DNA of 64,000 nt, taken from assembly GCA_016906335.1 (NCBI GenBank), contig JADEYG010000004.1, forward strand, positions 1,364,001 through 1,428,000, read 5' to 3'. Below are positions 1,162 to 64,000 of this stretch, in pieces. The translations under genes and the position numbers were made by a program. This stretch comes from Novakomyces olei (taxonomy: Eukaryota). Numbering within the stretch: the stretch's first letter is position 1; the number at the start of each line of letters is the position of its first letter. The notes below the pieces were generated by a model. It had not been told where the DNA came from and ran no database searches. It saw only the letters and a list, made by a program, of their open reading frames with translations.

Positions 1162-1479
1162 TGTTGTGTTTTTCTTTGTTTGGTTTGGGTACGGCTGTGT
1201 TGCTTTCACGGCAACTGTGGTGGGAAGCCAAATGGAAGGTAATAGTACTTAAAACGGTTTACACGGTCAACACGGTCGATAATCAGCGTCGGATAAAAGT
1301 GTGAACGGGCCTCCTTTTATCCTTGCTGGAACTAACTAACTATAACTAAAAATAGAAACAACTACGGAAAAGACTGTCTAAGCCACAAAGTGGCTAACTA
1401 AAATTCCGGAATTGGAAATAATCCGCAATCGAACGGATTATCTCCGATGAAAACGGAATTATGTCATATTGATATGACA
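1162..1479 (-). repeat. 3' LTR of element A
   Basis: Direct repeat of 7127-7444; one visible difference (GTGTGAAC vs GTGCGAAC). Confidence 0.95.
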
Positions 1480-2519
1480 CTATCCTCCTCTTCCAAAAAC
1501 GTAGACACTGCCGCCTGTGCCTTTTTGTACCAGCCTTGTCTCCTGCTGTCTTCTCCTGCCCAATCACGATATGCCATCAAGCAACGTTCGTGATCTTCCT
1601 TTACCTCGTCTCGAATAGTTGGGAACTGTGTACTAGCCCACGACGATTCCCACTTTGCCACTCGGTATAAAGCCTGGTCTTCGCTAGCAATATAGTAACC
1701 CATCAAGACTGCTTTCTCAAAAGACATCACCGCATGTGGTGTCCCAGACCTTAATCGAAAAATAACTCCCGGCTCTAGTACTCCAATCTTTAACCCTTCG
1801 AGGCTGCGAAGAGCTTCAGGTAATATAAAGTCTCCTGGCCTGCGATGATAGGGCTCCAACTTCTGTAAATTGGCCTCTGAATTGGCCCACGTAAAGACCA
1901 GCTTTCTCCCAAGAATTCCCACAATGACGGTTTCGCACAGAACCGGATCCACGTGAACGTCCGTGATTGTGCCCGACGGTGTGGCAGTCCCGTTCCATCC
2001 AAGTTCATTCAAATAACTTTCCTTCAACAATCCTTGCGCGCGAAGGCCCACTGACGATAAACCGTATTCGCTGATCGGCCTCAAATTGTAGGCTGCGTAT
2101 CTCGTAGTCCCCGGCTGGACGAATGATGCGAGGACCTGGGCGATTCGTATTTCGTCATCATGCACGCGAACCCGTATGTCCATAAACAAAGCTGTCTCAT
2201 CCTCCAAAAGGTCCTCGAAGACATGTGCCCATGTTGGCTTGCAATCGAAAACAAACCTTTCGCTATGGGGCTTGAGCTTTTCGAAATCAACCGATGCGAG
2301 CAGAGTAAAAATGTCTCTCGCCAACTGTTTGTTCGGTCGGTCTTCCTCCTTAAACCACTCTTCGGCCCAGCCAACCAGATCAGGGTCGTGCATCTCCATG
2401 TGACGGTCGCGGTCGTGCTTTCGGGTGTACTGTCGAGTGCACACAACACATTGGAACTTACCGCTGTCCAGCGCGTATCGCTTGCGCTGCCTCCCCTCTT
2501 CAAGAACGTTATTGTTCAT
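1464..2519 (-). CDS. C2H2 zinc finger + JmjC-like Fe(II)/2OG dioxygenase (retrotransposon accessory gene, ~351 aa)
   Basis: FQCVVCTRQYTRKHDRDRHMEMH; TPSGTITDVHVD, GRKLVFTW, LEPGVIFRLRSGTPHAVMSFE match the JmjC layout with HxD...H. The ORF is open from 2696, but the likely start is ATG 2519, downstream of a TATA at ~2577-2586. A homologue lies at 48101-49154. Confidence 0.85.
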   Translation of the reverse strand: MNNNVLEEGRQRKRYALDSGKFQCVVCTRQYTRKHDRDRHMEMHDPDLVGWAEEWFKEEDRPNKQLARDIFTLLASVDFEKLKPHSERFVFDCKPTWAHVFEDLLEDETALFMDIRVRVHDDEIRIAQVLASFVQPGTTRYAAYNLRPISEYGLSSVGLRAQGLLKESYLNELGWNGTATPSGTITDVHVDPVLCETVIVGILGRKLVFTWANSEANLQKLEPYHRRPGDFILPEALRSLEGLKIGVLEPGVIFRLRSGTPHAVMSFEKAVLMGYYIASEDQALYRVAKWESSWASTQFPTIRDEVKEDHERCLMAYRDWAGEDSRRQGWYKKAQAAVSTFLEEEDSVISI

Positions 2520-2770
2520 TGTCCGTAAATTTGCGGATTTGATGTCTAAGTTGCGGATTTGGTGGGGGTAGCCCACATATATATAGACTTCGTTATACTT
2601 GACTTCGACAAGTAATAATTCTTTGACGTTCCATAAAAATAATAATGATAATAATAGTATATACTTAATTATTTTATTAAGTAATAGTCGTAGCATAGAA
2701 TAACAATAAAAGCAATAATATAGATATATCTGATCCGTATCTTAGCGGATTATGTGTTGATATTGCGGAT

Positions 2771-5700: not shown

Positions 5701-6096
5701 GGGATTGTTCTCTTGCAACCATTGAATACCCAAAATGATGTCTCTCTGGCCAATATCTGCCACATAAAATCTCGTAGGTGTAACACAATTTCCTATCTTC
5801 ATGTCCATAATCTTCGTAGTTCTCGCCACGGGTCCTGATGCCAGGCTTCGGCCATCGACAACCTGTATCACAATTGGTCTCTGAAGTCTTTCTGTCTTTA
5901 GATTCAAATTCAATATTAATCGCGGGTGTATGAAATTTAGGTTCGCTCCTGAATCCACTAAAGCTTTTCGTCTAAGCCCATTTATTTGGACGTCCGTCTC
6001 CAAATGTCTCACTCCAGTATCTCGTCGTCTTTCAGTGGCTTTTAATTCAGCTTGTCCTAGAGAAACCACTTCTTTCTCTAGGCGAAATCTTTTCCC
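2771..6096 (-). CDS. pol: Pol polyprotein of A (PR-RT-RNaseH-integrase-chromodomain), one 1-bp frameshift at ~3027
   Basis: [31 protein letters not shown]. After the frameshift the frame continues ETLLEK...EYEVDYICNH...YLVHWKGYGVQDRTWEP to TGA at 2771. Confidence 0.9.
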
Positions 6097-7088
6097 GAGT
6101 CGTCGCTCAACTCGTTCGTCGTCATTGCAGCTTGACGGCTTACAAACGGAATTCTCTTTTCTTTGCACTCTTTTGCAATATGCCCTTTCTTCTGGCAATT
6201 ATAACACTGTACGTTTCTGTTGTCGTGACTTCTCTCTCTTTCTCTCGCGTCTCTCGCGTCTCTGTAATTCGTCTTGTGCTCTCTGTCATTCGTCTTGTAC
6301 TCTCTTGCGGGTCTGCCTGCTCCTCTGGCACCGGCAACCGCCAAATCAATTTCCATCGGTGCAGTCGTCTGGTTACTTCTGCCCGTAAATCTCGGCTCAT
6401 AATACGTTCTCGGTTCGTAACTTGTTCTCTGTCTCTCTTTACGTCTCTCAAATAGACGATTATCAATACTGATCGTCATCTCGATCATCTCTCGCAAGGT
6501 ACTAGGCTCTGTCGTTCTTGCCAATTCGTCCTTAAGCCTGTCGCTAAGGCCCTCGTAGTACTGCGAAATCAACGCTTCTTCGTTCCAGCTAAAGTTCGCT
6601 CTGAGTCTGTCAAACTCGGCTGCGTACTGAGCAACAGCTCCAGACTGCTTCAGATTGCGAATTTGCTTCTGCGCCTGCTTTCTAATATCTCGATCACCAA
6701 ACATCTGTAGGAATGAATCACAAAACGTCTCAAAATCGTTGAGTATTCCTTCGTTTTCCCCTAGGATGTGAGGCTCAATCCACCTGAACGCGGTTCCTCG
6801 CAAATAGGTTGCTGCAAACGTGACCTTCTGGCGGTCCGATCCGTATCTCGAGGGTAGTGCGTCGGTTATCATTTTCACTTGGGTGATAAATTCACGAGCC
6901 TTAGCTCTCTCGCCAAAAAACAAAGGTGGCGGGGCTAACTTGGGCTCCCGGTTGAACGTCGCATGTCGACTCTCCTGATCGTTTTCCAATTTGACCTTCA
7001 GCATCATGTTCTCATGCTCCAGTAGCTGTAACTTCGCTGTTGTTTCCTCAACAAATTGGTTCAGACGATTCATGTCGACACCTTCCAT
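6078..7088 (-). CDS. gag: Gag of A with CCHC zinc knuckle
   Basis: CYNCQKKGHIAKEC, PMEID, Retrotrans_gag motifs; first ATG after the PBS is at 7088. Confidence 0.9.
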   Translation of the reverse strand: MEGVDMNRLNQFVEETTAKLQLLEHENMMLKVKLENDQESRHATFNREPKLAPPPLFFGERAKAREFITQVKMITDALPSRYGSDRQKVTFAATYLRGTAFRWIEPHILGENEGILNDFETFCDSFLQMFGDRDIRKQAQKQIRNLKQSGAVAQYAAEFDRLRANFSWNEEALISQYYEGLSDRLKDELARTTEPSTLREMIEMTISIDNRLFERRKERQRTSYEPRTYYEPRFTGRSNQTTAPMEIDLAVAGARGAGRPAREYKTNDREHKTNYRDARDARERERSHDNRNVQCYNCQKKGHIAKECKEKRIPFVSRQAAMTTNELSDDSGKDFA

Positions 7089-7126
7089 GACGAACGGCTC
7101 GGCACCACAACGTGGGCTGATTATAC

Positions 7127-7444
7127 TGTTGTGTTTTTCTTTGTTTGGTTTGGGTACGGCTGTGTTGCTTTCACGGCAACTGTGGTGGGAAGCCAAATGG
7201 AAGGTAATAGTACTTAAAACGGTTTACACGGTCAACACGGTCGATAATCAGCGTCGGATAAAAGTGCGAACGGGCCTCCTTTTATCCTTGCTGGAACTAA
7301 CTAACTATAACTAAAAATAGAAACAACTACGGAAAAGACTGTCTAAGCCACAAAGTGGCTAACTAAAATTCCGGAATTGGAAATAATCCGCAATCGAACG
7401 GATTATCTCCGATGAAAACGGAATTATGTCATATTGATATGACA
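7127..7444 (-). repeat. 5' LTR of element A
   Basis: Direct repeat of 1162-1479, followed on the minus strand by a self-complementary PBS. Confidence 0.95.
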
Positions 7445-8328
7445 GATAATATCCGAGGTAAGATCCGAGGATGCGTTCCTTGGTTCGGAAAAAAGAAAGA
7501 TAGAGCAAAGACAAGATAATAGTAATAGTAGAAACTAAATGTCAAAGACAGAAAAATATAGTTAGGACAATAAAAGAAAGGAAACAATATTGAGAAAAGT
7601 CTTCCTTGGAAAAGATCCTTGGAAAGATCCGAAGATATGATCCTAAGTTAGGAACGAAAAGAATAATATTTTTTTTGTTGAAATATAAGATATTGAAAAG
7701 TCTTCCGAGGAAGAGATCCTAGGAAAGTTCCGAGGATAAGTTCCTAGGTTAGGAACGAACAAAAACAAGTAAAAGAAATTAAGTAACGGAACGGAACGAA
7801 ACAGAACAGACGGGTACGAAAATTTTTTTGTGACGGGTTAATATGTGAGGAAAGGGGGAAAGGAGGGAAGAAAGGCGAAGCGAAACGTAGGCGTCTGAAA
7901 GTAAAAGAAAATATATTAGAAAATATATTAGAAAATTAAATAGAGAAATTGAATAGAATAGATTAACCCGTGGGGAGCTGGGCTCACCACGGCGCTATTT
8001 ATAAGCTACGGACGGAGGAGGAAGGCGCAGCACGCTGCGAAGGGGCTGCGCCGGAAACGGAAAGAAGTAAACAAATAAATAGCGCAAAGTAAATAAACGC
8101 GCGGAAGTGTATAGACGAAATAAAAGAGGGGAAAAGGTAAGTAATGAAGAGGGGCTCCTAGGAAGGGATCCTAGGAAGGGATCCTAGGAAGGGATCCTAG
8201 GTAGGGATCCTAGGTAAGGATCCTAGGAAGGGATCCTAGGTAGGGATCCTAGGTGGGGTAAACCCTAACCATAACCCTAAACTATATTTATAACCCTAAC
8301 CCTAACTAACCCTAAGTGGTTCATTACA
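7445..8328 (-). mobile_element. 5' LTR (7844-8328) and 5' UTR of a family C element, truncated by A
   Basis: Reverse complement of 50216-51126; 8 copies of the 13-bp CCTAGGATCCCTW unit and TTAGGG-like motifs. Confidence 0.95.
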
Positions 8329-11300
8329 GAAGACAGGAGGAAATGTTACAGGAATCTCAGACATCGATCTCATCAGTATGTTTCTGGAATCAAACGCATT
8401 AATCTATGCAGAAGAACTTAGAGACAATGACAACTTGACGGCTAACCAAATGCTGGATCATCTGGAACGAAGCATTGTTCCCAACGATTACCTGCCAAAA
8501 GCCTACAGCAGATTTGTTACATTTTCCCAAGGAACGAGAAGCATCAGTCAATATGCTACACAACTTAAGCTCAAGTCAATGGAACTAGAAATAATTAATG
8601 AAGCAATATTGGTTCAACAATTCATTCATGGACTCAATGAGAAGATAAAACCACAAATAATGGGATCTTTGAGAAGCGCATTTGGCAACCAGCCTGGCAA
8701 CAATACTGGGATGACGAAATGGAAATGGCAGAGTGTGGTAGTAGTCGCAACTGGCTATGACTTTACTGCAACAAGACCATACATTGGAAATATCGCTCCA
8801 AAACCAAACAATCAACGAATTGAAGCTAGAACAAGCATGTCAGAGAAAAAGGAGCCAGAGAAACCTTCACTGAGAACGAGATGTACATTTTGTCGCAGAA
8901 CTGGACACACGTATGAACAATGTTTCAAACGAAAGAATGAATCAACCATTAGTGCTCTCAAAGATGACGATGAAATGGATAGCGAAGAAATAAGATTGGA
9001 TTATCAATGCTCTGCTGTTCAAAGCAAAAGCCAATAGTTTCTCGTAAATCTACCAATTGAAGTAAATGGTAAAGAGATCAAATGTCAAGCCCTTATTGAT
9101 ACAGGAAGTGACATTGATGTTATTGATTCAAATTTCTGCAATGTTCACAACCAAAGTATGAAGAGAGTGACCACAAAATTCAAATGGCATTTCAAGGATC
9201 AAAGACAATCAGCAGATATATGGCTAGAATAAAATTCAAAGGAAATGAATTAAATTGTGCAGTAGCCAGACTGCGAACTTCTGATCTCCTAATTGGTATG
9301 GGAACCTTGAGCAAGTTAGGAGCAATAGTCAACACCAGCAGAAGACAGGTCAAATGGCAGATGAACAAAGATACAGAAAGCATTTACGAAGACCAAAGCA
9401 TTCCAGTGGTTAGCTCCATAACAATCGATCCGAAGAAGAAAATTGAGGCCAAATCAATTACAAATGAAAACGCAATTGATTCAGACAAGGTACTGGAACT
9501 CTTACAAGAGAATTTTCCACAAACCTTGATCAAAGAACCTCCAAGCAAGTTACCAATTATGAGACCAGTCGTGGCAACTTATGAACCAATTGATCCAAAC
9601 AAGAAATATAACATCAAAAAATGGTATCCAAGCAAAAAGCTTATGATGCCTTTAAAGATGAAAATTGATGATCTATTACAAGCAAGAATGATATCAATAT
9701 CTACAGAAGAACCTAGTGCAATATTATTCCCAATTCCTAAAGACAAAGAAATGGTGAATAACTTACCAATCCGAATGAGATTAAGAATTATTTACGATTT
9801 GTCAATGATGCTCGACCTCGCAATACAAATATGAAGCGATTTTACATTCAAGTACCGCGAATTGACATAGTTGTTCAGGACATAGCCAGAGCAAAGTATC
9901 GAACAAAATTGATCTAAAGGATGCTTTCTTTCAATCTCGAATACAGCCTGGGCAAGAACATTATACAGCATTCTGGACACCATTTGGTATTTATCAATGG
10001 AATGTGATGCCACAGGGTAATCGAAATTCCACTGCAATACAACAACAACTAATGGAGGAACTATTCAGACCATATATTGGAATATGGATGACCGTTTATG
10101 TTGACGACATAATAATATATGATGACGATGTCCAAGAACATCTGGATCACTTGGTACTTGTATTTTGCATCATGGCCAAATGGGAATTGTATGCCAGTCC
10201 AACAAAGACCTTTCCATTTTGCAGAAGCTTTGTTGTGTTGGGAAGACAAATCAGTGACGAAGGAATCAAAATGACCGACAAGTCAAAAAATTCCATACTA
10301 AAATTACAAGCCCCAAAGAACTTGAAACAAGTACAGAAATTGGTCGGAATGCTTAATTGGGTATCAACTTTTATACCAAATTTATCCTCTCAAATTTCCA
10401 TATTCACAGAAATGAAAGAATTTCATTGGGACGAAACGAAGCAAAAAGGGTTCAATGAAATTAAAAAAGCAGTCGAACAAGACATAGTGCTAAAACCATT
10501 TGAACCAGAACCCCTAAACAATGGTACAGAAAAATTGTTCATACGAATAGATGCTTCGCTAGTCGGAACTGGAGGATGGCTAGGACAAGGAAAAGAGTGG
10601 CAAAGCTGCCGAATAATTGGATTCACTTCTAAGAAATTGGGCACAGCAGAGTCACATTACCCAGTTCACGAGCTGGAATATCTTGCATGCATCAGAGCAT
10701 TAGATCACTTTGAAATATATGCCAGAGGGTATCAAGTAAATTGCTTAACAGACAATAAGGCGCTAAGTCGTCTTCTCTATTCGAAAAACGTTATGTTATC
10801 AAGACGACATCTGAGATGGATGGACTTTTTAAATGAATTTGACATCAACATCATACATGTATCGGGCACGGCCAACGTTTTGGCAGATATATTGTCACGA
10901 TCGCCTCCTAAATCAAATGTGTCCGCAATTAGCATGGAACAAAGTCCTGTCACACATCTGGAAATAAAAGATCTTTACCTAAATGATCCGTATTGGGCTG
11001 AAGTACTAACTTCGCTGAAAAATACTGATACAGCTATTGATTTTAAACGAGCACAAGCAAAGTATTATCTAAAAGATGACCTGATACATCTCAAATTTGA
11101 TAACCGCATTTGTGTGCCTACAGATTTCACTAACACGATAATACGGGAGTTTCATGATACGTACCATGGAGGACATGGGGGAATGAACAAGACAACAGCT
11201 GGAATAGCAAAAACCTACTATTGGCCAGGAATGTCAAAAGAAATCAAGGAATATGTGAAATCATGTGAGACATGTGCCAAAAATAAGATCACTCCTCACA

Positions 11301-15842: not shown

Positions 15843-16241
<399 letters not shown>

Positions 16242-17199
16242 ATAATAATAACGATACAACGCAGTGCAATACTGTAGTTAATATACACTAATCGGAAAAG
16301 GAAAAAAAGAAGGAATAACGGCAATGATTTCAAGAGTTCATCACCCAATTGACGTCCAATCATGAATCATGCAGCGTTGAAAAGCAAAATAATAATAGCC
16401 TATTAAATATGTACACTTGAGCCACAAGAGACGAAAAGATCGACAAAAATAGACTTGGCAACGCATTAACTGTCATATAGATTACATAATCACAAGATAA
16501 TAATATCCAACGAAACCATTGCTCGTTCTTGTCACCAAAAATTTAAGGGGACACTGAATCGTGGTTTGTCTCAACAAAACTGAGACATGTCTTATGGAAT
16601 TATTCATAAAATATGGGATAACCGGCCGAGTCGGAGGTCAAAGTAACGGAACTATACTTATATAGGAATAACGAGACATCTATAAACACCAGAACCATGC
16701 TTGACCTTAAACCACAAATGGTAGAAAAATCCCTTAGATGTGCGACTGACCTGTACAAAGCTAGTTTATTGCGACAAAGGACGTAATTTGTAATTGAACC
16801 TGCTATACGTAGCTAGCTTGAACAAACTAAATCTATTAAGAAAGGGGAAAATAAAAGGGGAAGAAAATAGAAAGAAAAAATAATCAAAAATCGATTTCAA
16901 GCAAGGGCACTCCGGACTAAATGCACTTGTCCAGACCAATGTTCTCATACATATAACTGCTTTTTCATTTCATTTCTTGTATCATTGGGTACTCGCTCAT
17001 TCAGCCATTCGAATATTTGTTATGCCTGCTTGATCATTGTTCACAGACCTATTTCCATCAGGTTGTTGACCGTTCGGACAAAGCCTGAGATTGGATCAAA
17101 TGTATCCAGGACTTCACTTTAAACCGGAAAAGCATCAACTAAACCATTACTAGGTTCTATAAAATTTCTTTTCGCCACCAGATGCGTCAGGAATAAATC

Positions 17200-46258: not shown

Positions 46259-47718
46259 ATGTCTGGATCGACCGCGATGCAACCGACGCATCCCTCGTCC
46301 AATGAAGGGCTGCAAGTTCAAGCCCCGTCAGCAAAGATCTCCATTCAAAAGCTGAGAGGGGCCGAAAACTACGACATTTGGGCTCAACACATGAAAGCCC
46401 AACTGAACGGCCTAGGCCTATTTGGCTACGTTACCGGACGAAATAAGGAACCTGAAAGAAAAGGCCTTAAGAAAGAACCGGAAACAAAGACAATAGATGA
46501 CAACGAGTCAATATTGTCAGACGACGACTTCGAGGAGGGAAACGAAGAGCTTAACATTTGGAAGCGAAATTCGTCCCTCGCTCTCTGTCACATTCTGGGA
46601 AACATTTCCTTGGAAATCAACCGAAGAGTCAAAAGACTCAACAGCGCAAAGGAAGTCTGGAGATGTAATGAACCACTTAGGGTTAGTTAGGGTTAGGGTT
46701 ATAGATATAGTTTAGGGTTATGGTTAGGGTTTACCCCACCTAGGATCCCTACCTAGGGTCCCTTCCTAGGATCCCTACCTAGGATCCCTACCTAGGATCC
46801 CTTCCTAGGATCCATTCCTAGGATCCCCTCTTCATTACTTACCTTTTTCCCCTCTTTTATTTCGTCTATACACTTCCGCGCGTTTATTTACTTTGCGCTA
46901 TTTATTTGTTTACTTCTTTCCGTTTCCGGCGCAGCCCCTTCGCAGCGTGCTGCGCCTTTCTCCTCCGTCCGTAGCTTATAAATAGCGCCGTGGTGAGCCC
47001 AGCTCCCCACGGGTTAATCTATTCTATATAATTTCTATTCTATTTTCTATCTATTTATTTTCTATTCTATTCAATTTCTCTATTTAATTTTCTAATATAT
47101 TTTCTAATATATTTTCTAATATATTTTCTTTTACTTTCAGACGCCTACGTTTCGCTCCGCCTTTCTTCCCTCCTTTTCCCCTTTCGTCACAGGAGACTCC
47201 TTAAGCGCGAGTACGCCAGAGCAGGTTTTTCATACATAGGAACCTGCTACTCGAACTTTTTCAACTTCAAGCTTGGAAACGAAGGAGGACAAACTCCAGA
47301 AGACTACTGTCGAAAATTCGTCGACCTACTGGAATCCTACCAAGTTGGAGGAGAACAAGTCGGAATGTTTACTCAGATATTTACCTTTTTCTCTGGAATA
47401 GAGAGAGACTATGAGCAGTTCGTGCAAATTCAGAAGGACACGTACGACGTCCAGAAACCCGTCGATCTCGAAACCATGATCGAACGGTTCCTAAACCACA
47501 GCAGGGGAAGAGCAAATGAGTACCCGATAGCTCTGGTCACCGATCGAAACGGTGGACCGAAAGGTAAAGTGCGCTGCTCGTTCTGCAAAAAGCCAGGCCA
47601 CACAGAGAACGCCTGCTGGAGAAAGCATCCTGAAAAGAGGCCTAGTCGCGAGAACAAACAGATCGAGCGGACAAAGACTTTTCTTGCTACGGCCCATGTC
47701 TCTACCTTGGACGTGTGG
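46259..47718 (+). pseudogene. gag: Copia gag of H, split by solo LTR
   Basis: KLRGAENYDIWAQHMKAQL, AKEVWR|LLKREY in frame across the insertion, CSFCKKPGHTENAC. Confidence 0.85.
46664..47191 (+). mobile_element. Solo LTR of family C
   Basis: TG...CA, 5-bp TSD GGAGA on both sides. Confidence 0.95.
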
Positions 47719-48100
47719 TGTTATGTTGCTACCTAGCACGCCTGCTTAGGTAGATTCGGACGTAGACTCTTAACTGCTCGTAGTAATAAACGCTTTTGTT
47801 ACTATAAGCTTCTGCCAGTCGTACGCGGCTGGCTACAGCAGGGGACTCCAGATGGAAGTTAACTCTTCCAACAAAGTTGATGAACCGTAAAGTTATAAAG
47901 GAGAGAAGCCCCTTTATATCCTTTACGGGCTACGTACTCACTAATCTCACTAACTAAAATAACTCAAAAACTATCTCGAAAAGGAACTAAGAGGCTAAGC
48001 CTCAACAAGTAAGCTAAACTACTTTACTCGGTGCAAGTTCTGTGCAAGATGCACTGTACTTGCACCATGTCAGGTGCAAACCATGACATCACTCCCCTCC

Positions 48101-49154
48101 TTAAGCTCCAATAAGGCTTGCGATTTCCCTAATCCTCGCAACGTATAGATAGAACGTCTTCCTTTCGCGCAAGTAGTTATCCATCCGGGTGATGGAACTT
48201 CTCAACTCTGCGCGGTAGGCGGCCAATTCCTCCCCAGGGGCACCTCGTAATGTATTGGCCTCCCATTTCACTAACTCGGGTAGGCGCGCATCGAACGTAA
48301 AGATTTCATACCCCGTCAAAAACGCATTCTCCACTGTGAGAACTGCGTGTAACGTTCCAGCAGGGAATTTGAATACAGTCCCAGGCCTCACGATGGCCAC
48401 TTTGACCTCCTCCAAATGCTCCAAGGCCTCCACCAGTAGTGGGTCACCAGCCTTTCGATGGAAACGTGCAAAATAGTTTAAATTGCTTTCCGTTGGGTCC
48501 CAACAAACGACCACTTTTGTTCCCAGGACTCCCACAACCACTTGTCCGAACAGGACGGGGTCCATATGGACGTCGGTGAGCGCCCCTTTTGGCGTAATCG
48601 CACCGCTCTATCCCACGTCGCTCGTAGTGTAACGCTTCAGCGCGTCTAACACTCTTGGCCCACAGGCGTCCAGGCCATTTGGCGCTTCCATAAATAAATC
48701 GTAAACCGAATACCCCTCGCCTTCACCATTAACTAGCGCTCCCTTGACGCTGTCAGCGTCGATCTCGTCGTCTCGAAGACGGACACGGGCATCAGTAATG
48801 AAAAGGAGCAGTTTGCTCAGACAGATCGCGGAACACATGAATCCAGTTTGGTCGTATATCGAACGACTCACTGATGTCCTCGGTCAACGGGGCCAGAACC
48901 GGAGCGTCTAGGTGTATGAGCTTCCGAAAGACTGTTTTACCCAGCTCGCAGCTTGCCAGGTTTTCGGTTTTGATCGCCCATTCCTTAGATATCGCTTCCA
49001 GTGCCGTGGCGTTCCCGTGCACTTGTATTCCATGCCTTTTCAACTCCTGCATCCGGTGATAACGCACCGGGCATAATTCGCAGGCGAACGGCCCAGAATT
49101 GTTCGGGCGTCGACGGCTTGTCGTCGACCTATCTCCCTCCTCACTGCGCGGCAT
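48101..49154 (-). pseudogene. C2H2 zinc finger + JmjC-like gene of E (one frameshift, one stop)
   Basis: FACELCPVRYHRMQELKRHGIQVH; ITPKGALTDVHMD...GTKVVVCW...VRPGTVFKFPAGTLHAVLT. Frameshift at ~48800; TAG at 48608-48610 where A has Trp. Confidence 0.85.
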
Positions 49155-49448
49155 GATCCTTCGCAGCAGTCGGTTTGTCTCGTTTAATTGCACTGATGTT
49201 GCAAGTTGTGTGTGTGTGTGCAAATTTTTTCACTCGGTATATATATATAGTCTCGTATATATAATAAAGAAAACCCTGACCAATTTTATATATATGGTCC
49301 ACTCATATAATAAGTATATAGTAGTGTATGATATTAAGTAATCATAATAATAGTAAAGTTGCACTGCAGGTGCATCTTGCACCTCTTGTGCACATAAAAT
49401 AAAAATAGCCATAAAAACACCAAAATAACGTGTCACACGTACACACGT

Positions 49449-50215
49449 TCACTTGGATCGTTCCAGGTATGCTTTAATTGCATCTTGAGCATTGTGTAAG
49501 TTCTCCAAGGGTTCCCAAGTACGTTCTTCTTCAGGGTAACCTTTCCAATGAACAAGATATTCGCGTTTTCGACCGCGTCCACGGTGTTCGCAAATATATT
49601 CGACGTCATACTCCTGTAGATCTGGGAGTATATCTGGTACGGCATGATCTGTAGGTTCTCGGTCAAACCTATCAGCTGTAAACTTCTCAAGTAGTGTTTC
49701 GTTAAACACGTCGTGCATCTGCACCGAGGGGGGTAATTTGAGACGGTACGTGTTGTGTTTTTCTTTGTTTGGTTTGGGTACGGCTGTGTTGCTTTCACGG
49801 CAACTGTGGTGGGAAGCCAAATGGAAGGTAATAGTACTTAAAACGGTTTACACGGTCAACACGGTCGACACGGTCGATAATCAGCGTCGGATAAAAGTGC
49901 GAACGGGCCTCCTTTTATCCTTGCTGGAACTAACTAACTATAACTAAAAATAGAAACAACTACGGAAAAGACTGTCTAAGCCACAAAGTGGCTAACTAAA
50001 ATTCCGGAATTGGAAATAATCCGCAATCGAACGGATTATCTCCGATGAAAACGGAATTATGTCATATTGATATGACAGTACGCACTCGTCCCAACTTTCT
50101 GTAGTCTTCGTAAGGACCCAATCTCGTGTGGTCAAGCTTCGTCCTTGGTCGTGTGGTTTCAATGTGCTTTCGGCGAAGCCAAACATAATCACCAGGTGTT
50201 AACTCGATAGATTCT
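49449..50215 (-). pseudogene. pol: C-terminal integrase + chromodomain of E pol, interrupted by solo A LTR
   Basis: GDYVWLRRKHI...KLDHTRLGPY, then YRLKLP...EYDVEYICEH...YLVHWKGYPEEERTWEP. Confidence 0.85.
49751..50077 (-). mobile_element. Solo LTR of family A
   Basis: Matches 7127-7444 plus a 9-bp duplication; TSD GTACG on both sides. Confidence 0.95.
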
Positions 50216-50727
50216 TGTAATGAACCACTTAGGGTTAGTTAGGGTTAGGGTTATAAATATAGTTTAGGGTTATGGTTAGGGTTTACCCCACCTAGGATCC
50301 CTACCTAGGATCCCTTCCTAGGATCCCTACCTAGGATCCCTTCCTAGGATCCTTACCTAGGATCCCTACCTAGGATCCCTTCCTAGGATCCCTTCCTAGG
50401 ATCCCTTCCTAGGATCCCCTCTTCATTACTTACCTTTTTCCCCTCTTTTATTTCGTCTATACACTTCCGCGCGTTTATTTACTTTGCGCTATTTATTTGT
50501 TTACTTCTTTCCGTTTCCGGCGCAGCCCCTTCGCAGCGTGCTGCGCCTTCCTCCTCCGTCCGTAGCTTATAAATAGCGCCGTGGTGAGCCCAGCTCCCCA
50601 CGGGTTAATCTATTCTATTCAATTTCTCTATTTAATTTTCTAATATATTTTCTAATATATTTTCTTTTACTTTCAGACGCCTACGTTTCGCTTCGCCTTT
50701 CTTCCCTCCTTTCCCCCTTTCCTCACA
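50216..50727 (+). repeat. 5' LTR of C (10 x 13-bp units, TTAGGG motifs)
   Basis: TG...CA, 512 bp. Confidence 0.95.
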
Positions 50728-52790
50728 TATTAACCCGTCACAAAAAAATTTTCGTACCCGTCTGTTCTGTTTCGTTCCGTTCCGTTACTTAATTTCTTTT
50801 ACTTGTTTTTGTTCGTTCCTAACCTAGGAACTTATCCTCGGAACTTTCCTAGGATCTCTTCCTCGGAAGACTTTTCAATATCTTATATTTCAACAAAAAA
50901 AATATTATTCTTTTCGTTCCTAACTTAGGATCATATCTTCGGATCTTTCCAAGGATCTTTTCCAAGGAAGACTTTTCTCAATATTGTTTCCTTTCTTTTA
51001 TTGTCCTAACTATATTTTTCTGTCTTTGACATTTAGTTTCTACTATTATTATTATCTTGTCTTTGCTCTATCTTTCTTTTTTCCGAACCAAGGAACGCAT
51101 CCTCGGATCTTACCTCGGATATTATCCTAGGAAGACTTTTACTTTGAACTCACCTTCTACTTTGTCAAATCTTTTTATTTCTGCCTTACAATTCTTTCAC
51201 GTCTATTATAATATTTCTCCTGAGTGGTCTCTTCTTTCAAGATGGACACCGATCAACCTCAACAGCCGGAATTCGAGGCCTTCCTCAATCAGCTCAAGGA
51301 GCGCCTCCTCAATCTCGAAGCCGAATCGGCGAGAGATAAGGCAAAGATCCAGACTCTGGAAGCTATTTCCTCATCGAATCGCGGTCCAACCAAATCATTG
51401 GTCCGCGTACCCGACTTCTTTACCGGTCGTCGAGCGGATCTCAGCTCGTTCCTTGCCCACGTGAAGCTTTACATGATCAGCAATCCTGGTCACTTCCCAA
51501 CGGACAAACTCAAGGTCCTCTTTGTCGCTTCTCTTTTGAGAGACTCTGCTTTTCGCTGGTTCCAGCCCTTACTGGACCCTTGTAAGACGGTCCTTACAAC
51601 TACAACCGCTGGAGGCCGGTCGTGTATAGTCTAAATAGAAGTAAAGGAATTACAGAAACCAAGGGAACAGAAAGCGATTATTGTAAGGCTTACCAGGAGT
51701 AATATAATATATTACTCCCACTTTGAGATAATCAACCCGTGAAGGGCGAGAGGCCTTCACGGGCAACTATAAACTAAACTAAGTTGCGGAGGAGCGGATG
51801 CTCCTTCGCATTCTAAACTACTCTTCCCAAACTAACTTATGCGAAGGTCGCACAAGTTAGAGCGGGAAGCTCTCAACCTAAACTAGACTATGGAAATAAC
51901 TATGAATGTTCTCGCGCTAGCGGAGTGCGAAGGGTCGCACTCGCTAGCGTGCGAGAATGAGAACGGGAAGCGAGGTCCGTGCACATTGTGCATGGAGCCC
52001 CTCGCTCCCGTGGGCCAAGCTGGCTTAGTGCGCGTACCTACATGCGCACTAAGACAACTTCTACGTCCCAAGACCATCGCATTACGCGCCGACTGGTCTT
52101 GGGCCGCGTTGGCGAAGCTTGCGACGCGCGGACATCCCAAGTCCGACTACAGGCGTCGCCCCTCGCTTCCCAACGCGGTTGTCAGGAACTCGCCAAGGCG
52201 AGGATCATGACAGTATCCCCCCTCCCTTGGGCGAGGTCCCCGCGCCCGCAAAACATAAAATATCCCAAAACAATAGTAAGGCGAAAATAAAAACAACAGA
52301 TTTCCCAGCTTTCAACATAATAAGGAACATTGCAACTCTTCCACAGTCTTGTCTCAATAAAATAGCATGGGTAAATCAAATCAATCAATAAATGTTCGCA
52401 TTGCCCTGCGTAAGGAAAGAAAATTAAAATGCGAGCACGAACACATGTAGACCATACTGTCTTCCAATTGCAAACCAAGTCGTCTCCCTGGTCAGTGTTG
52501 TCGTATCTCCTCCGTATAACGTGTGTATGTCGTGCGATAGAATAAACAATAGTCGCGTTCAATTTGTCAACGCCGTAAATGATTAAAGCGGTGTTAGCTT
52601 CATCGTTTTCGATTTTAATAATTTTTTTTTTGCATGATTTTCAAAAAAGTTTTTTCCAAATAGCGATAAATAACTAGTGCGAATTGTGTATTATATCGCA
52701 GTCGTAAACAAAAATCAAGAGTTGAGTCTCGCGATTGCGTAAGATTACGTGAGTTGAATGACGTAACCTGTATCGCGATTAACGTAAACA

Positions 52791-55700
52791 TCATTGCTTC
52801 GGCTTAGCCGGGTGTGATCTGTGAAATTCTTTCACTAAATCGTCGCAATTTGTCAAATTGCCTGCCGGCTCCCAAGTGCGATTAGCACTATCGTATCCCT
52901 TCCAGTGTACAAAGTATTCCAATTTATTTCTTCGCTTCCTGGAGTCCAACACTTCTTCTACCTCCCACTCTGGTGTATTCTCAATTATTATTGGTAGTGG
53001 TGGTGCTGCCTGCCGTCGCACAATCGTAGACGTAGACTTGTATGATTCCAATAAAGAAGCATGGAATACTGGGTGTATTCTCATCGTGTTCGGTAGATCC
53101 AACTTGTATGCACGTAAACCGATACGTTCCAAGATTGTAAAAGGTCCAATCTTCCTGTAATCCAACTTGTCGCTTGGCCTAGTGGTACTGATGTTCTTTC
53201 TCACTAGCCATACTTTCTGACCGACTTCAAAATTCTTGTCGACACGGTGCGTATTAGCAAACCGTGCTTGATCGCTAATGGCGTGCTTGGTTTCGATCTG
53301 TAAAAGGCGATGTAGCGTTCGCAAGAAATCAATCCGATTGTCCGCCGATGGACACTGCCGTGCTGTTGCTATCGTAAAACGGCATTTGGGGTGATACCCA
53401 TATAAAGCGTAACTAGGGGTCGCTTTTATTGATGATTGCTCAGTATTGTTATATGCGAACTGTGCAAAAGGTAGCAAGTTTACCCAATTCGTTTGTTGGT
53501 AATTGCTGTAAATTCTCAAATATTGCTCGAGGCTCTGATTAAGCCTTTCCGTTTGTCCATCGCTCTGGGGATGGTACGCAGTTGATAACCTTTGCTTGAT
53601 ATCACAATGTGCGAGTAAATGCTTCGTAAAATGTGATACGAAAACTGATCCACGATCTGAGATAATTTCTTCTGGCAGTCCAAAGTTAGCAAATACTCTG
53701 TGAGCGTATAGCAATGCTAGTTCTTTCGCGCCCATGGTCTCGCGTATTGGTACAAAGATGCCTATCTTCGTAAAGCGACATACTATAACCCAAATTGAGT
53801 CGTAGTCCTTGCCTGTAATGACATCTCTTGACACGGGGAGCTTCACAATGAAGTCCATAGCAATGCTTTCCCAAGGCTTTGTAGGCACTCGCAACGAATG
53901 TAGTAGACCATAAGGAGCATGACGCGATGGTTTACTTCGTGCGCAAGTGTCGCATGAGTCCACATAGTTAAATACGTCCTTCCGCATCCTAGGCCAGTAG
54001 TAATTTCGTGTCACAAGCTCTAGCGTCTTAGCCTGTCCGGGGTGACCTGAAGTCTGCGAATCATGACATTCTTGCATGATTGATAATCGCAAATCGTTGT
54101 CTCTGGGTATGTAAATCAAACCCGAGAACATTAACAGACCTTCCTTGTCTATTGTATAGTTCTCCAAATGAGCAGCACGAGGCTTGCTCTTTAACTCCTC
54201 AATAATATTTTTGCAAATGCTGTCCTTCTCGTAGCATTTCTTAATATCCTGTGCCAGCGTTTTGTTGTCCTCAATCGCAAACACAAATTGCGATTTGTCC
54301 AAAAGCACCATTGTTCGTTCTGGCTTTTCCTCCTCTTCGCTGCTAACGTAATCGCTTCTTCGCGATAAGGAGTCAGCCTTGTGGTTAAACTTTCCCGCAC
54401 GATACACGATCACAAAATCGTAAGACGCAAGTAACTGCGACCAGCGCATTTGCCGTCTATTCAGGACACGCGCGGTCCAAAAGTACACAAGATTGCGATG
54501 ATCCGTGTATATCGTAGTTTTGTGAAGGGGACTCTCCAAGTATACCCTCCATTCCCGAAGACATACAACAATAGCTAATAGCTCCTTGTCGTGAATGTCG
54601 TAGTTCGTCTCTGCGCTTGTCATCTTGCGCGAGTAAAATGCGATTGGTCTCATATCGCCGTTCTCGTCTTTTTGCGAAAGGATCCCGCCTATCGCAAAAT
54701 CTGAGGCGTCCGTTTCCAAAAAGCTCGGCTTTTGTGGATCAAAGTGCACAAGAATAGGTGCGCCTAAGAATGCATCCTTCAACGCATTGAATGACTCCCT
54801 GCATTCGTCGCTAAACACGAACTTTGTATCCTTCTTTAAAAGCCGGGTAAGAGGTACCGTAATCTTGCTGTAGTTGGCGATGAATCTTCGGTAATAGTTC
54901 GCCAGTCCCAGGAACGACATAACCTCCTTAACATTCTTTGGCTCGGGCCATGTTTCAATCGATTTGACCTTCGTATTTTCCATCGACACACCTTTCGTTG
55001 AAATCACGAAGCCAAGAAACTCCGTTGTGTCGGTATGGAATTCGCATTTCTCCAATTTGACAAATAAATTGCCTTGCGAAGTCTCTCCAATACTCCGCGC
55101 ACGTGCTCCACGTGTTCTTCCTCTGTATTTGAGTAAATCAGTATATCGTCCAAGTAAACGACAACATATCGATCCAGGCAATCTCGCAAAGTGTCGTTGG
55201 CGAGTGCTTGAAACGAAGCCGGGGCATTCGTAAGCCCAAACGGCATGACTTGGTACTCGTAGTGGCCGTACCTCGTACGAAAGGCCGTTTTCCATTCGTC
55301 GCCTTTTCGTATCCTAACCAAATTATATGCACCGCGAAGATCCAATCGCGTAAAAATAGTTGCTTGGCGAATGCGATCTAGAAGTTCGGATATAAGCGGT
55401 AATGCATATCTGTTTTTGACAGTGATTGCGTTCAGACCGCGATAGTCAACGCATAATCTAAGCGATCCATCTTTCTTTTTGACAAATAAGATCGGCGCCC
55501 CCGCGGGCGACGACGACGGTCGTATAAAACCTTTAGCGAGGTTTTCCTTGAATAATCTCTCAGCGTTTGCAATTCGCGTTCGGCGAGCGGGTAGATCGGA
55601 CCAAAAGGCGGCTTTGCATTTTCGGCCAAGGGTATCGCATGATCCCAAGGTTGATGTTTCGGCAAAACGTCCGCGTTCTTCTTCTCAAATAGGTCGCGAT

Positions 55701-56337
55701 ATCCCTCGTAGAACCCAGGCAATGTAACGCGAGGCTTGATATCTTGCTCGTCCGTTGCGTACACACATAAAATACCTGATTCTCCATTACGAGCCAATCT
55801 TGCAAATTCGGTTGCGCTGACTTGCATGGATTCGGATAATGTACTGCACTTCAAACAGTTCGCCAAACAGTAGTTCGACTTAAACTCGACGTTTGCGCGA
55901 CTCCATCCGATCGTAGGCTCATGCTTGTCCAACCATGGCTTGCCCAAGATAGCATCGTATCCACGAAGAGGTATGACATTGAAGGTCATCCTTTCTCGAT
56001 GTTCGCCAATTGATATATCCATCTCGCTGGTGTGAAAGCGAATACCTCCTGACTTGATTGTCCTTCCATCAACGACTCTGATGGGCTCGGTCTCGCTCTT
56101 CTCCGTAAGCTTAATAAAAGCATGCGATGCGAGTTTCTCGCTGATAAAATTAGAGGTAGCTCCTGAGTCAATCAGGGCTCTCGCGTTCAACTCTCCATCC
56201 TCTGTCTTGACTTTCACGACGACAGTCAGATGCTTTGCTTTGTCCGGTTCCGTAAAAACTGTCATAACTTCTGGTGGCCTAAATTGTTGTTTGCCCAGAT
56301 CAGGCCTTTTCATTGGACCTGGGCGTTCGCTTTTCCC
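52791..56337 (-). CDS. pol: Pol of F (PR-RT-RH-INT-chromodomain) with two 1-bp frameshifts
   Basis: [45 protein letters not shown]...YFVHWKGY. Shifts at ~55553 and ~55070. Confidence 0.9.
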
Positions 56338-57242
56338 AAATCGGAAAATTCGTGCGTGAATGCAGCGACGTGTTGCTGATTGTACGTCTTCTTCTTCTGC
56401 TTGCATTCTCTTGCTCGATGACCCACGCGTCCACAGTTAAAGCATTTGATGTTGCTTTTGCGATGGTTGTTATCCTCCTTTTCCAAACTAATCGCGTCCA
56501 CATCCATAGGAGTAAAACTTGTACTCGCGTTTGCAGCCGGGCGGTTGTTGGAATATTTCACGGAACCGCGGCTTGCACTCTCGATGTGCCTGTCGGATAT
56601 TCTTCCATCCACGCGAACTGAAATCTCAATCATTTCATTCAAAGTGCGGGGTCTGTCCATCCTGGAAAGCTCATCCTTGATGCGATCCTTCAGCCCCTGA
56701 TAATACATGAACGTCAGCGCACTGTCATTGAAATCCAAATACGAAGCAATTCTTTGAAAAATGCTCGCATAAGATGCTGCTGATCCACGTTGTCTCAAGG
56801 CGGCTAACTCTCTTTGCGCCTGACTCGCCCTGTCGACCTTGCCGAAATTCGCGGCCAACGCTTCGCAAAAGGCTTCAAAAGTAGGTACTACCGAAGCGAA
56901 GTCGTTGTTGCGAAGGTGTGGTTCGAACCACGCAAATGCGGCGTCCCGCAAATACGAAGCTGCGAACAAAACCTTCGAACGCTCGTCGCGAAACTCGTGC
57001 GGTTTCAACATGATGTAAAGGCGAAGCTGCGCCAAAAAATTCTCGACCATTCTGCGGTCCCCACGAAACGCGTCGGGCTTCATCACCGCTGGTCCGTCAC
57101 TCGTCGGAGCTCTCTTAGCTCGCGAACCGATCTCCTGGGTCAGATGCGCAATGTGCGATTGCCCTTTCTCGTTCTCTGCCTTCAACTCGGCAATTTGAGT
57201 TTGCAGGGATTGCAAAAAGGTGTTGAGTTCCTCTTGCGACAT
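56310..57242 (-). CDS. gag: Gag of F
   Basis: FAASYLRDAAFAWF, PMDVD, CFNCGRVGHRAREC. Confidence 0.92.
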   Translation of the reverse strand: MSQEELNTFLQSLQTQIAELKAENEKGQSHIAHLTQEIGSRAKRAPTSDGPAVMKPDAFRGDRRMVENFLAQLRLYIMLKPHEFRDERSKVLFAASYLRDAAFAWFEPHLRNNDFASVVPTFEAFCEALAANFGKVDRASQAQRELAALRQRGSAASYASIFQRIASYLDFNDSALTFMYYQGLKDRIKDELSRMDRPRTLNEMIEISVRVDGRISDRHIESASRGSVKYSNNRPAANASTSFTPMDVDAISLEKEDNNHRKSNIKCFNCGRVGHRARECKQKKKTYNQQHVAAFTHEFSDLGKANAQVQ

Positions 57243-58859
57243 CTTGTCCCTCGTACCGCAAAACTCGTAATCGTAATCGTTCTTCTAGAACCGTTCTTCG
57301 TAAATTGTTCACTCAATCGTCGACTATCCAAGCCGATACTCAATAACTCAAAATAACTGTGTTTCACCGGAACACTCGATAACTCAAAATTCTCAAACTC
57401 GAATCCACGTCCTTCACTCGACGCTTTAACCGTTTTAACTTCCGTAAAAATCCGTAAAAATAAGTACCGAACCGCGTCTTTGACTCGACGTCCGAAACTC
57501 TCTCGAATCCGAAGGAAATAAAACACAAACAATTCCAAAAAACTTCAAACTTCAACGACCGGGACGGGTTGATTATAGTGTAAGACGGTCCTTACAACTA
57601 CAACCGCTGGAGGCCGGTCGTGTATAGTCTAAATAGAAGTAAAGGAATTACAGAAACCAAGGGAACAGAAAGCGATTATTGTAAGGCTTACCAGGAGTAA
57701 TATAATATATTACTCCCACTTTGAGATAATCAACCCGTGAAGGGCGAGAGGCCTTCACGGGCAACTATAAACTAAACTAAGTTGCGGAGGAGCGGATGCT
57801 CCTTCGCATTCTAAACTACTCTTCCCAAACTAACTTATGCGAAGGTCGCACAAGTTAGAGCGGGAAGCTCTCAACCTAAACTAGACTATGGAAATAACTA
57901 TGAATGTTCTCGCGCTAGCGGAGTGCGAAGGGTCGCACTCGCTAGCGTGCGAGAATGAGAACGGGAAGCGAGGTCCGTGCACATTGTGCATGGAGCCCCT
58001 CGCTCCCGTGGGCCAAGCTGGCTTAGTGCGCGTACCTACATGCGCACTAAGACAACTTCTACGTCCCAAGACCATCGCATTACGCGCCGACTGGTCTTGG
58101 GCCGCGTTGGCGAAGCTTGCGACGCGCGGACATCCCAAGTCCGACTACAGGCGTCGCCCCTCGCTTCCCAACGCGGTTGTCAGGAACTCGCCAAGGCGAG
58201 GATCATGACAACCCTTCCAGCGGCATCGAACCTCCAATTCTTTCCGATTACAGCATCTTCACAAGCGAACTTACGCGCATGTTTGGTGACGTTGACAACC
58301 AAGCAACGGCAGAAAGAGAGCTTCGGAAGCTTTCCCAAACCGGTTCTGTTGCCAATTATGCGTCTCGTTTCCAGCAGCTGATGTCTCACCTGCAATTCGA
58401 CAATGACGCAACTTGTTTCATGTTCTACAACGGATTAAAGGATTACATTAAGGATGAGCTTGCTCGAGAAGGACGTCCTTCCTATTTCGAAGATTTGGTT
58501 AGCCTTAGCATTCGTCTTGACAATCGCCTTTATGATCGGCGCCTCGAACGCAACTCTACCAATCGCCCTTCTCGATTCCCTCAGCAGAGCCGATCCTTTC
58601 CCTCAACCTTCTCGTCGGCTCCACGAAGCCCCAAGCAAAGCGACGCAATGGAAGTCGACGCGTTAACTACTCAGCCTCGAAAACTTACGGCTCAAGAGCG
58701 CAAACATCGGATCGAAAATAACCTTTGCCTGTACTGCGGCAAAAGCGGCCATTCCATCAACAAATGCCGAAAGATCCCCGACAAGCCTAAACTCGCTAGT
58801 TCCCTTTCAAATGTGGCTTCCATTTCGTTCACCAAAGGCATTCCTGAAGACCCCTCTTC

Positions 58860-63236: not shown

Positions 63237-63722
63237 TGTAATGAACCACTTAGGGTTAGTTAGGGTTAGGGTTATAAATATAGTTTAGGGTTATGGTTAG
63301 GGTTTACCCCACCTAGGATCCCTACCTAGGATCCCTTCCTAGGATCCTTACCTAGGATCCCTACCTAGGATCCCTTCCTAGGATCCCTTCCTAGGATCCC
63401 TTCCTAGGATCCCCTCTTCATTACTTACCTTTTTCCCCTCTTTTATTTCGTCTATACACTTCCGCGCGTTTATTTACTTTGCGCTATTTATTTGTTTACT
63501 TCTTTCCGTTTCCGGCGCAGCCCCTTCGCAGCGTGCTGCGCCTTCCTCCTCCGTCCGTAGCTTATAAATAGCGCCGTGGTGAGCCCAGCTCCCCACGGGT
63601 TAATCTATTCTATTCAATTTCTCTATTTAATTTTCTAATATATTTTCTAATATATTTTCTTTTACTTTCAGACGCCTACGTTTCGCTTCGCCTTTCTTCC
63701 CTCCTTTCCCCCTTTCCTCACA
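63237..63722 (+). repeat. 3' LTR of C (8 x 13-bp units)
   Basis: TG...CA, 486 bp. Confidence 0.95.
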
Positions 63723-64000
63723 TCTTCGCATAAGTAAGCCATTTGACCATAGAGGTTCTCCAAGATTGGAATTCTCTGTGGGTCATAGAATGCCCATTCA
63801 GCTTTGCTGGTTCAGGCAGCTTGATTTTGAAATCCATTTCTATTGAATGAAACCAATCGAACAGTGTTTTTAATTATTAAACTAATAAAGAGTATTCAAA
63901 AATCCTGGTTGCTGTTTTCCGCTCTCCAAGTGTTTGTGATAATCTCTTTCAACTTTATCCGGATCTTCTCCTTTGTAAAGTCGAACCTTAAATTCGTCCT
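63723..64000 (-). mobile_element. 5' portion of element B (5' UTR and gag start, ATG at 63837)
   Basis: MDFKIKLPEPAKLNG...WLTYAK joins in frame, through the duplicated GAAGA, to TGGNVTGISDIDLISMFLE at 8329+. Confidence 0.8.

Follow-up and report, generated by a model that had tools for sequence, protein, structure and literature searches.

Arrays of family-specific short words accompany a zinc-finger JmjC gene in two families of fungal Ty3/gypsy chromoviruses: a possible VANC-like arrangement in retrotransposons

The DNA analyzed here is a stretch of 64,000 nucleotides from Novakomyces olei (assembly GCA_016906335.1, contig JADEYG010000004.1, positions 1,364,001 to 1,428,000 of the forward strand), which we call the window and to whose positions all element coordinates below refer. 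The window is eukaryotic and rich in long terminal repeat (LTR) retrotransposons, two of which, designated A and E, are the subject of this report. They are best explained as representatives of two diverged families within one lineage of fungal Ty3/gypsy chromoviruses that carries an extra gene, here termed the cargo, between pol and the 3' LTR. In both families the cargo encodes one N-terminal zinc finger and a JmjC domain, and dense arrays of a short word, different in A and E, are present in the LTR and on both sides of the TATA sequence preceding the cargo. What is new in the system is that a JmjC cargo tagged with a finger is paired with arrays that are specific to the family and placed at matching control points.

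Element E is encoded on the minus strand. Its 3' LTR (47719-48091, 373 bp), within which the first-pass annotation of this DNA had correctly placed the first motif cluster, was delimited by the places where summed contig depth jumps and loose ends occur (47719 and 48079-48088) and by its alignment with the A LTR; in the sense direction it starts with TGATGTCATGG, ends with AACATAACA and has a TATA-like sequence, GGATATAAAGG, about 170 nt in. The adjoining cargo (48101-49154, minus strand; ATG at 49154-49152, stop codon TAA at 48103-48101) is a pseudogene with about 117 uninterrupted codons at its start, broken by a frameshift near 48800 and by an in-frame TAG at 48610-48608, and its C2H2 finger, FACELCPVRYHRMQELKRHGIQVH, is encoded at 49017-49088 (minus strand), with the fingers of EGR1/Zif268 as the best solved matches. 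Beyond the cargo, the tail of pol (49450-49746, minus strand, stop codon TGA near 49450) comprises the end of the SH3-like domain of integrase and an intact chromodomain. It is succeeded by a solo A-type LTR (49751-50077, minus strand) that lies within the E integrase, is flanked by a 5-bp duplication, GTACG, and keeps the A word (50018, 50032), and then by the remaining integrase fragment (50083-50212, minus strand), which is ended at about 50212 by an unrelated LTR-like repeat. The perfect GTACG duplication around the solo LTR (49746-50082) implies that the A family was active after the death of E. The unrelated repeat is present in four full or partial copies (7445-8331, 50212-51126, 63237-63723 and 46664-47191) that are 93-99% alike, with tandem repeats of ~39 nt inside them (50286-50418, for example); one adjoins the 5' LTR of A and another truncates E.

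By direct reading, the non-coding parts of E contain three clusters of hexamers related to GTGCAA, to which, as to the TATA run and to all arrays described below, no strand is assigned. The first (48031-48079) is situated in U3, 12-60 nt into the LTR and more than 100 nt upstream of its TATA-like box, and consists of five GTGCA-core hexamers: GTGCAA at 48031, 48042 and 48074, TTGCAC at 48060 and ATGCAC, the reverse complement of GTGCAT, at 48049. The other two flank the TATA run TATATATATATA at 49238-49251, a putative internal promoter of the cargo that has a TATA counterpart at the matching place in A. The downstream cluster (49188-49223; TTGCAC at 49188, TTGCAA at 49199, GTGCAA at 49218) occupies the interval 15-50 nt downstream of the TATA run, or 34-69 nt ahead of the cargo ATG, and includes a (GT)n run; the upstream cluster (49359-49393) comprises TTGCAC at 49359, CTGCAG at 49364, GTGCAT at 49370, TTGCAC at 49377 and GTGCAC at 49388. 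The first-pass annotation had counted five such words in U3, all of which we read in the same interval, and had noted the recurrence of the motif around a TATA sequence at ~49237-49250.

The E arrays are real and highly non-random. All 13 TGCA tetramers in the combined E LTR (47719-48100) and gap between the pol stop and the cargo ATG (49155-49449) fall inside the three clusters, and the tetramer is absent from the remaining 306 nt of the LTR and from the 124-nt AT-rich spacer; in 11 of the 13 TGCA-core sites one of the strands reads GTGCA. The whole window contains 25 copies of GTGCAA when both strands are counted, and 8 of these copies are within 333 regulatory positions where 0.09 would be expected. 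In an unbiased k-mer count of the E regulatory regions, GTGCAA ranks second, after TATA words only. The sites are degenerate palindromes of the form (G/T)-TGCA-(A/C), and the spacing of the TGCA cores, 11-7-11, is common to the U3 and the upstream arrays (the full U3 series being 14-11-7-11), with an inverted pair, GTGCA-N3-TGCAC, at the center of both. The two arrays also share a 13-nt block, GTGCATCTTGCAC, in opposite orientations.

Low complexity might be suspected as the source of such clustering, as the downstream array adjoins the (GT)n run and AT-rich repeats. However, when the E stretches were shuffled with dinucleotides preserved and low-complexity words were left out of the count, none of 2000 shuffles contained a non-trivial 6-mer in at least 8 copies or a 5-mer in at least 12, and the layout recurs in A, where 3 of 2000 shuffles attain the observed count. 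A chance origin of the arrays was rejected by the shuffle test, and we assign it next to no weight.

Element A, likewise on the minus strand (1163-7444), is a young retrotransposon of the Ty3/gypsy type in which self-comparison, Pfam searches and open frames revealed gag, pol, a chromodomain and an intact extra gene. The Pfam domains of its pol, flanked by LTRs, are in the chromovirus order protease, reverse transcriptase, RNase H, integrase, and the chromodomain pattern Y-x-V-x-Y...WKGY...TWEP is found in both A, where it is out of frame by 1 nt, and E. The 3' LTR (1163-1479, minus strand) is 99.7% identical over 318 aligned nt to its partner at 7127-7444. The A cargo (1464-2519, minus strand) is intact and encodes 351 amino acids that include an N-terminal basic patch, the C2H2 finger (2456-2388) and the JmjC domain. 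The word of A, TTGCGGATT, contains AATCCGC/GCGGATT, which flanks the TATA (2578-2585) with copies at 2533 and 2553 on one side and at 2745 and 2765 on the other. In the downstream array (2533-2559), two TTGCGGATT sites 20 bp apart are located between the TATA and the ATG at 2519; in the upstream array (2745-2771), two GCGGATT sites are again 20 bp apart and the first overlaps the pol stop codon. The word is also present in all three A-type LTR copies (1420, 7385, 50018) as an inverted pair, AATCCG-N8-CGGATT, which in the 3' LTR lies in U3 at 1414-1440. In the control regions of A, AATCCGC is observed 5 times where 0.06 would be expected, a count reached in 3 of 2000 shuffles. A further array, of three GCGGAT(T) sites within 55 nt (5562-5616), is internal to pol; in element sense it reads GCGGAT(T), the orientation opposite to that of the promoter arrays, and we presume that it may resemble the coding-region enhancers of yeast Ty1.

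The two words do not mix. GCGGATT was not found in E (47719-49746), and GTGCAA is absent from the LTRs and the cargo promoter of A, the only two copies in that element being in gag-pol coding sequence. Neither word is arrayed in the other LTR families of the window, and a tblastn search of the window with the A cargo matched only A and E, so that no third cargo family was found there. One of the other families is represented by a chromodomain Ty3/gypsy element at 51581-58210, with 632-bp LTRs that are 100% identical, neither word in arrays, and, separating pol from the 3' LTR, an open frame of 152 codons on the minus strand (52182-52640). The possibility that the E word is a decayed A word was considered; the two words differ at most positions. 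Repeat-induced point mutation was considered as well; the region is 47.5% G+C and AT-skewed decay was not seen.

The layout, in turn, is common to both elements, as the first-pass annotation had asserted. Along the sense strand, A and E both present the pol stop, an array, an AT-rich spacer with TATA, a second array, the cargo ATG and stop, and an LTR with an early array. The LTR array is confined to the first ~70 nt of U3, at least ~100 nt ahead of the LTR TATA, and the array following the cargo TATA begins 15-18 nt after the TATA run and before the ATG. Between A and E, the sequence surrounding the arrays can scarcely be aligned any longer, except at the LTR ends, at the TATA, over part of the spacer and in the coding tail of the chromodomain.

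Additional E-like copies were recovered from four public DNA runs, represented by contigs from two studies and aligned at 85% likeness; two of the runs (X3 and X4) are uninformative where contig cover is absent. In run X1 the LTR bins sum to 11,422-35,246, compared to 1,047-1,054 for the flank and the E interior (sums over contigs, not copy numbers), which indicates that E-type LTR sequence is present on many more contigs than the E interior. At 48049, an A>T difference found in about 45% of the depth converts the off-consensus ATGCAC to the canonical TTGCAC. A related copy, about 8% diverged, has kept three of four upstream sites and lost the fourth (49392 A>T); the same contig is devoid of 163 bp (49185-49347) that include the downstream array and the TATA-rich spacer, and the break lies between two 8-bp direct repeats, TTGCACTG, both of them sites in their own right. 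In another related copy, 48293-49069, which covers most of the cargo, is missing and 29 different letters stand in its place.

These data bear on the proposal that the arrays are by-products of local duplication, by which an inverted U3 block would have come to reside in the cargo promoter, or that they act at the level of RNA in the untranslated regions of the cargo mRNA. The identical 13-nt inverted block and the same 11-7-11 spacing in the U3 and upstream arrays of E are compatible with duplication, and the 163-bp loss between the TTGCACTG repeats demonstrates repeat-driven rearrangement in a related copy. An RNA role would be in line with the positions of the U3 array, in the 3' untranslated part of any cargo transcript, and of the downstream array, probably in its 5' untranslated part. 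Nevertheless, A and E, diverged as they are, keep arrays with consistent words at the same three places, which drift after a single duplication would not produce; the T at 48049 brings other copies back to the consensus, and the sites come in both orientations, which speaks against a function in RNA. Both forms of this explanation appear improbable to us.

The cargo protein was characterized by sequence and structure comparison. An exhaustive HMMER search with the A cargo yielded 70 relatives at about 30% identity, and the taxa of the relatives found (Crepidotus, Tilletia and clusters of Ascomycota) are in keeping with a fungal source; a word-indexed homologue search gave no match for the A cargo at near length. 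When a profile of 35 cargo sequences was compared to the PDB, the best matches were ceKDM7A (1.5e-11), KDM2A (3.4e-11) and PHF8 (9e-9), and the AlphaFold2 model of the A cargo, obtained with an alignment (predicted local distance difference test score, pLDDT, 88.7; a single-sequence model with pLDDT 36 was not used), retrieved ceKDM7A, PHF8, PHF2 and KDM2A as the top Foldseek matches (E ~1e-10, template modeling score 0.42-0.48). The A cargo has the metal triad H189, D191 and H262 and the 2-oxoglutarate residues K206 and T186; in the 35-sequence alignment H189 is invariant and D191, K206 and H262 are at least 90% conserved, and in an alignment of 8 sequences all five residues are invariant. 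They align with the matching residues of ceKDM7A and KDM2A. The E cargo, which is 41% identical to that of A over 184 amino acids, retains the T/H/D/K/H set in spite of its pseudogene state. The Pfam JmjC family was not matched by the A cargo, for which no Pfam family scored above threshold, and only 4 of the 35 relatives matched JmjC_2 or JmjC, with E values up to 1. The models and alignments together show the cargo to be a JmjC protein of the KDM7/PHF8/KDM2 type with a complete catalytic set and, as such, a putative demethylase. It shares with KDM7A, PHF8, PHF2 and KDM2A (PDB: 3n9l, 3k3o, 3ptr, 4qwn) the fold and the T-x-x-H-x-D, K and H residues, but is only 10-15% identical to them, much smaller and transposon-borne, and no PHD or CXXC reader domain was found in it by Pfam. 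Two scans of viral contigs detected no cargo relative, and a metagenome scan detected a single locus (3661-5089 of its contig), where a finger-less JmjC relative of high G+C content is encoded outside any transposon. This gene reads across two frames, possibly owing to an intron or a frameshift, and lies beside an 896-codon gene on the other strand.

In both A and E the cargo has one classical C2H2 finger, located at the N-terminus after a short basic patch, with the C-x2-C-x12-H-x3-4-H pattern and a conserved hydrophobic core. The A finger, FQCVVCTRQYTRKHDRDRHMEMH, has R(-1), H(2), D(3) and R(6) in its helix, and the E finger, FACELCPVRYHRMQELKRHGIQVH, has R(-1), Q(2), E(3) and R(6), the R-E-R combination that the first-pass annotation had recognized. 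The 60 N-terminal residues of the E cargo are closest, among solved chains, to EGR1/Zif268 (3e-6), with finger 3 the best match and finger 1 a weaker one, and the N-terminal region of the A cargo matches ZBTB20 and Zif268-variant fingers (1e-7 to 1e-4); these matches identify both fingers as being of the DNA-reading type. The E finger shares R(-1), E(3) and R(6) with fingers 1 and 3 of EGR1/Zif268, but those, like the engineered GNN modules, belong to tandem arrays of at least three fingers, in contrast to the single finger of the cargo. With one finger only, extra contacts or multimers would be needed. The single-finger GAGA factor, with its basic arms, is a model for the arm plus finger of the cargo. 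Residues 5-20 of the E cargo (EGDRSTTSRRRPNNSGP, 49095-49142, minus strand) align with the helix plus linker of the finger that precedes in EGR1, a stretch that may be no more than a basic arm or may descend from an upstream finger since lost.

In the module table of Zinc Finger Tools, RSDDLVR is paired with GCG and RSDELVR with GTG (PMC5260015), in agreement with the earlier statement that R-E-R helices read GCG or GTG. The contrast between A and E fits this code better than that statement implied, as D(3) goes with GCG and E(3) with GTG: GCG is present in 5 of 6 sites of A (R/D/R) and GTG in 11 of the 13 TGCA-core hexamers of E (R/E/R), and neither word contains the triplet of the other family. 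As predicted binding, the correspondence between finger and triplet holds in both families and is suggestive; a rough count of triplet positions puts the chance of both triplets fitting at ~0.02-0.04, which is not decisive.

The strongest rival account dispenses with the finger. It holds that the arrays are sites for host transcription factors, recruited separately by each family and co-switching the LTR enhancer and the cargo promoter, and that the finger binds elsewhere or does not bind DNA. Repeated sites for host factors are common in the U3 of LTRs. The A word, with CGG next to AT-rich sequence and an everted CCG-N8-CGG in the LTR, is in the style of fungal Zn2Cys6 dimers, and the palindromic TGCA cores of E at fixed spacing would equally suit a host dimer. 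The conserved words exceed the reach of one finger, and the array inside pol of A recalls the internal enhancers of yeast Ty1. Conversely, this account leaves the fit between finger and triplet in both families unexplained, and one array is downstream of the TATA, near the expected start, where an upstream activator would hardly be looked for. No such arrays occur in the remaining LTR families, in a window whose host DNA is too scant for a fair test. A chromatin enzyme that is encoded by a transposable element and equipped with a DNA-reading finger would, moreover, need an address, for which its own element would be the obvious one. On balance, we regard recruitment of host factors as quite possible.

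The form of the sites also raises the question of pairing. The inverted-pair palindromes of E suggest a dimeric reader, and a homodimer of the A cargo was predicted with a score of 0.53, compared to 0.00 for the best control. The mark used was passed by 21 of 30 microbial proteins solved as homodimers versus 0 of 23 solved as single chains, and by 17 of 29 versus 0 of 30 from eukaryotes. At least 93% of contacts are common to the runs, the pLDDT of the partner is at least 82, and the predicted interface (residues 96-105 and 125-135, in helices, with 152 and 269) is away from the finger, such that the dimer, if formed, would present two fingers to paired sites. The model supports pairing without showing it, and its passing score may stem from JmjC pairs of known structure that the predictor has memorized.

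Taken together, these observations lead us, tentatively, to read the cargo as a self-addressed, finger-guided JmjC anti-silencer that works like the VANC proteins of VANDAL transposons, a reading that we consider plausible and hold with somewhat less than even confidence. The extra gene would be transcribed from its own internal TATA promoter, and the finger and basic arm would address the protein to the short family-specific words, which are arrayed in the upstream-activating part of U3, on both sides of the cargo TATA and, in A, also within pol. Once bound, the protein would oppose methyl-lysine-based silencing of its own family, either by demethylation or as an Epe1-like scaffold, in an element whose chromodomain integrase seeks silent chromatin. 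The families would be kept from serving each other by the difference in helix residue 3 (D in A, E in E) along with that in the core of the word (GCG/GTG). A fuller version, in which a dimeric JmjC protein reads the family word with finger and arm at the LTR enhancer and at its own promoter, and in which the changes from D to E and from GCG to GTG occurred together and gave orthogonal self-recognition, seems to us possible but less likely than not. The first-pass annotation had proposed such co-divergence of finger and motif; word and helix position 3 do differ in both of the two families compared, but two are too few for statistics, and its overall interpretation is partly supported.

A number of observations weigh against the self-addressed reading. 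The E copy in the window is a dead, truncated fossil, and hence records the arrangement and does not perform it. In the otherwise young A copy, pol has a 1-nt frame shift at about 3020-3035 (minus strand), between the SH3-like domain of integrase and the chromodomain ('HNVF|MKLYW' in A, 'HDVFNETLLEKF' in E), which puts the chromodomain out of frame. Among the 70 representatives of the cargo family, the N-terminal finger is present in only 5 of the 65 JmjC-type matches (the other 5 being multi-finger proteins matched only on the finger), and the helix residues of these five finger-bearing relatives all differ; the Pfam zf-C2H2 score of the A finger, 13.6 bits (E 0.095), is below the cut-off of 25.2. 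Covariation in just two families is an anecdote. A single finger specifies 3-4 bp, compared to a word of 9 bp in A and 6 bp in E, and the rest needs another reader; the E site TTGCAA and the core CTGCAG do not contain GTG, and palindromes of the form K-TGCA-M at a fixed 11-7-11 spacing suit a TGCA-reading factor equally well. If the A and E sites are aligned on their common GCAA, the predicted triplets are on opposite strands, so that the binding registers would differ, and we do not claim a common register. The promoter pairs of A are direct repeats 20 bp apart, which are not an obvious preference of a two-fold dimer; inverted pairs would suit such a dimer better. Finally, one of the five best-supported LTR variants among those listed for 47719-48091 (49 further rows lie beyond) falls in the array, so special conservation of the array is not shown.

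The closest known parallel to the self-addressed reading is in plants. In Arabidopsis, VANC21 and VANC6 each bind a different short word, arrayed in the non-coding DNA of the VANDAL family that encodes the protein, and DNA methylation is lost there; the word is YAGTATTAY for VANC21 and AGTTGTCC/AGTTGTAC for VANC6 (PMC5735166). As in that system, a protein is encoded by the transposable element, dense family-specific words are present in the non-coding DNA of the same family, and the words differ between related families; for VANC, the density of the words matters. The differences are substantial: VANC is neither a JmjC nor a finger protein, and its carrier is a plant Mutator-like DNA transposon and not a fungal retrotransposon; the VANC21 words are arrayed in one orientation, compared to both orientations in E, and VANC binding and loss of methylation were documented by chromatin immunoprecipitation, electrophoretic mobility shift assay and bisulfite sequencing. 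By analogy, then, the cargo would work like VANC, and membership in the VANC family is not claimed, the cargo being a JmjC protein.

Other known proteins match parts of the proposal. Epe1 of Schizosaccharomyces pombe, likewise a JmjC protein of a fungus, counteracts heterochromatin marked by H3K9 methylation, in part independently of catalysis (PMC7192584, PMC6317313, PMC6576747). Unlike the cargo it is the product of a host gene, is recruited via Swi6/HP1 rather than by a DNA-reading finger, and is not transposon-borne. Rph1 and Gis1 of Saccharomyces cerevisiae have two C-terminal fingers and a JmjN plus JmjC (KDM4-type) core. They combine JmjC and C2H2 fingers in one fungal protein at specific promoters (PMC4085034), and they differ from the cargo in being host genes, the cargo pairing a KDM7/PHF8/KDM2-type core with a single finger at its N-terminus. 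In the full-text literature searched, which leaves out most subscription journals, no description of a JmjC gene on a fungal LTR retrotransposon was found.

The remainder of the window contains further repetitive sequence. A giant repetitive coding region on the plus strand (17197-45522) consists of four consecutive stop-to-stop frames of 4987, 1912, 1164 and 1414 codons, with repeats spaced at 63, 93 and 156 nt and about 175 copies per repeat family; it may represent one huge repeat protein interrupted by frame changes. Shortly before it (15843-16251), a 6-nt tandem repeat extends over about 400 nt, with 99% self-identity at 6-nt shifts and several frames open.

What the arrangement means depends on which factor reads the words. 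If the sites belong to host factors, A and E would have an ordinary enhancer shared between LTR and cargo promoter, and the JmjC cargo alone would be of interest. If, on the other hand, the self-addressed reading is true, the cargo would be a retrotransposon counterpart of VANC and a natural programmable demethylase and, to our knowledge, the first example in a retrotransposon of the VANC principle, in which a transposon-encoded protein recognizes its own family only and lifts the silencing there. The chemistry would be different, as histone methyl marks rather than DNA methylation would be removed. The two families, with one residue and one base changed, would provide a system for studying the co-evolution of a regulator and its sites, and the cargo would be a small natural scaffold for sequence-directed demethylation. 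For the chromoviruses themselves, such an activity would account for the continued expression of chromodomain elements after insertion into silent chromatin.

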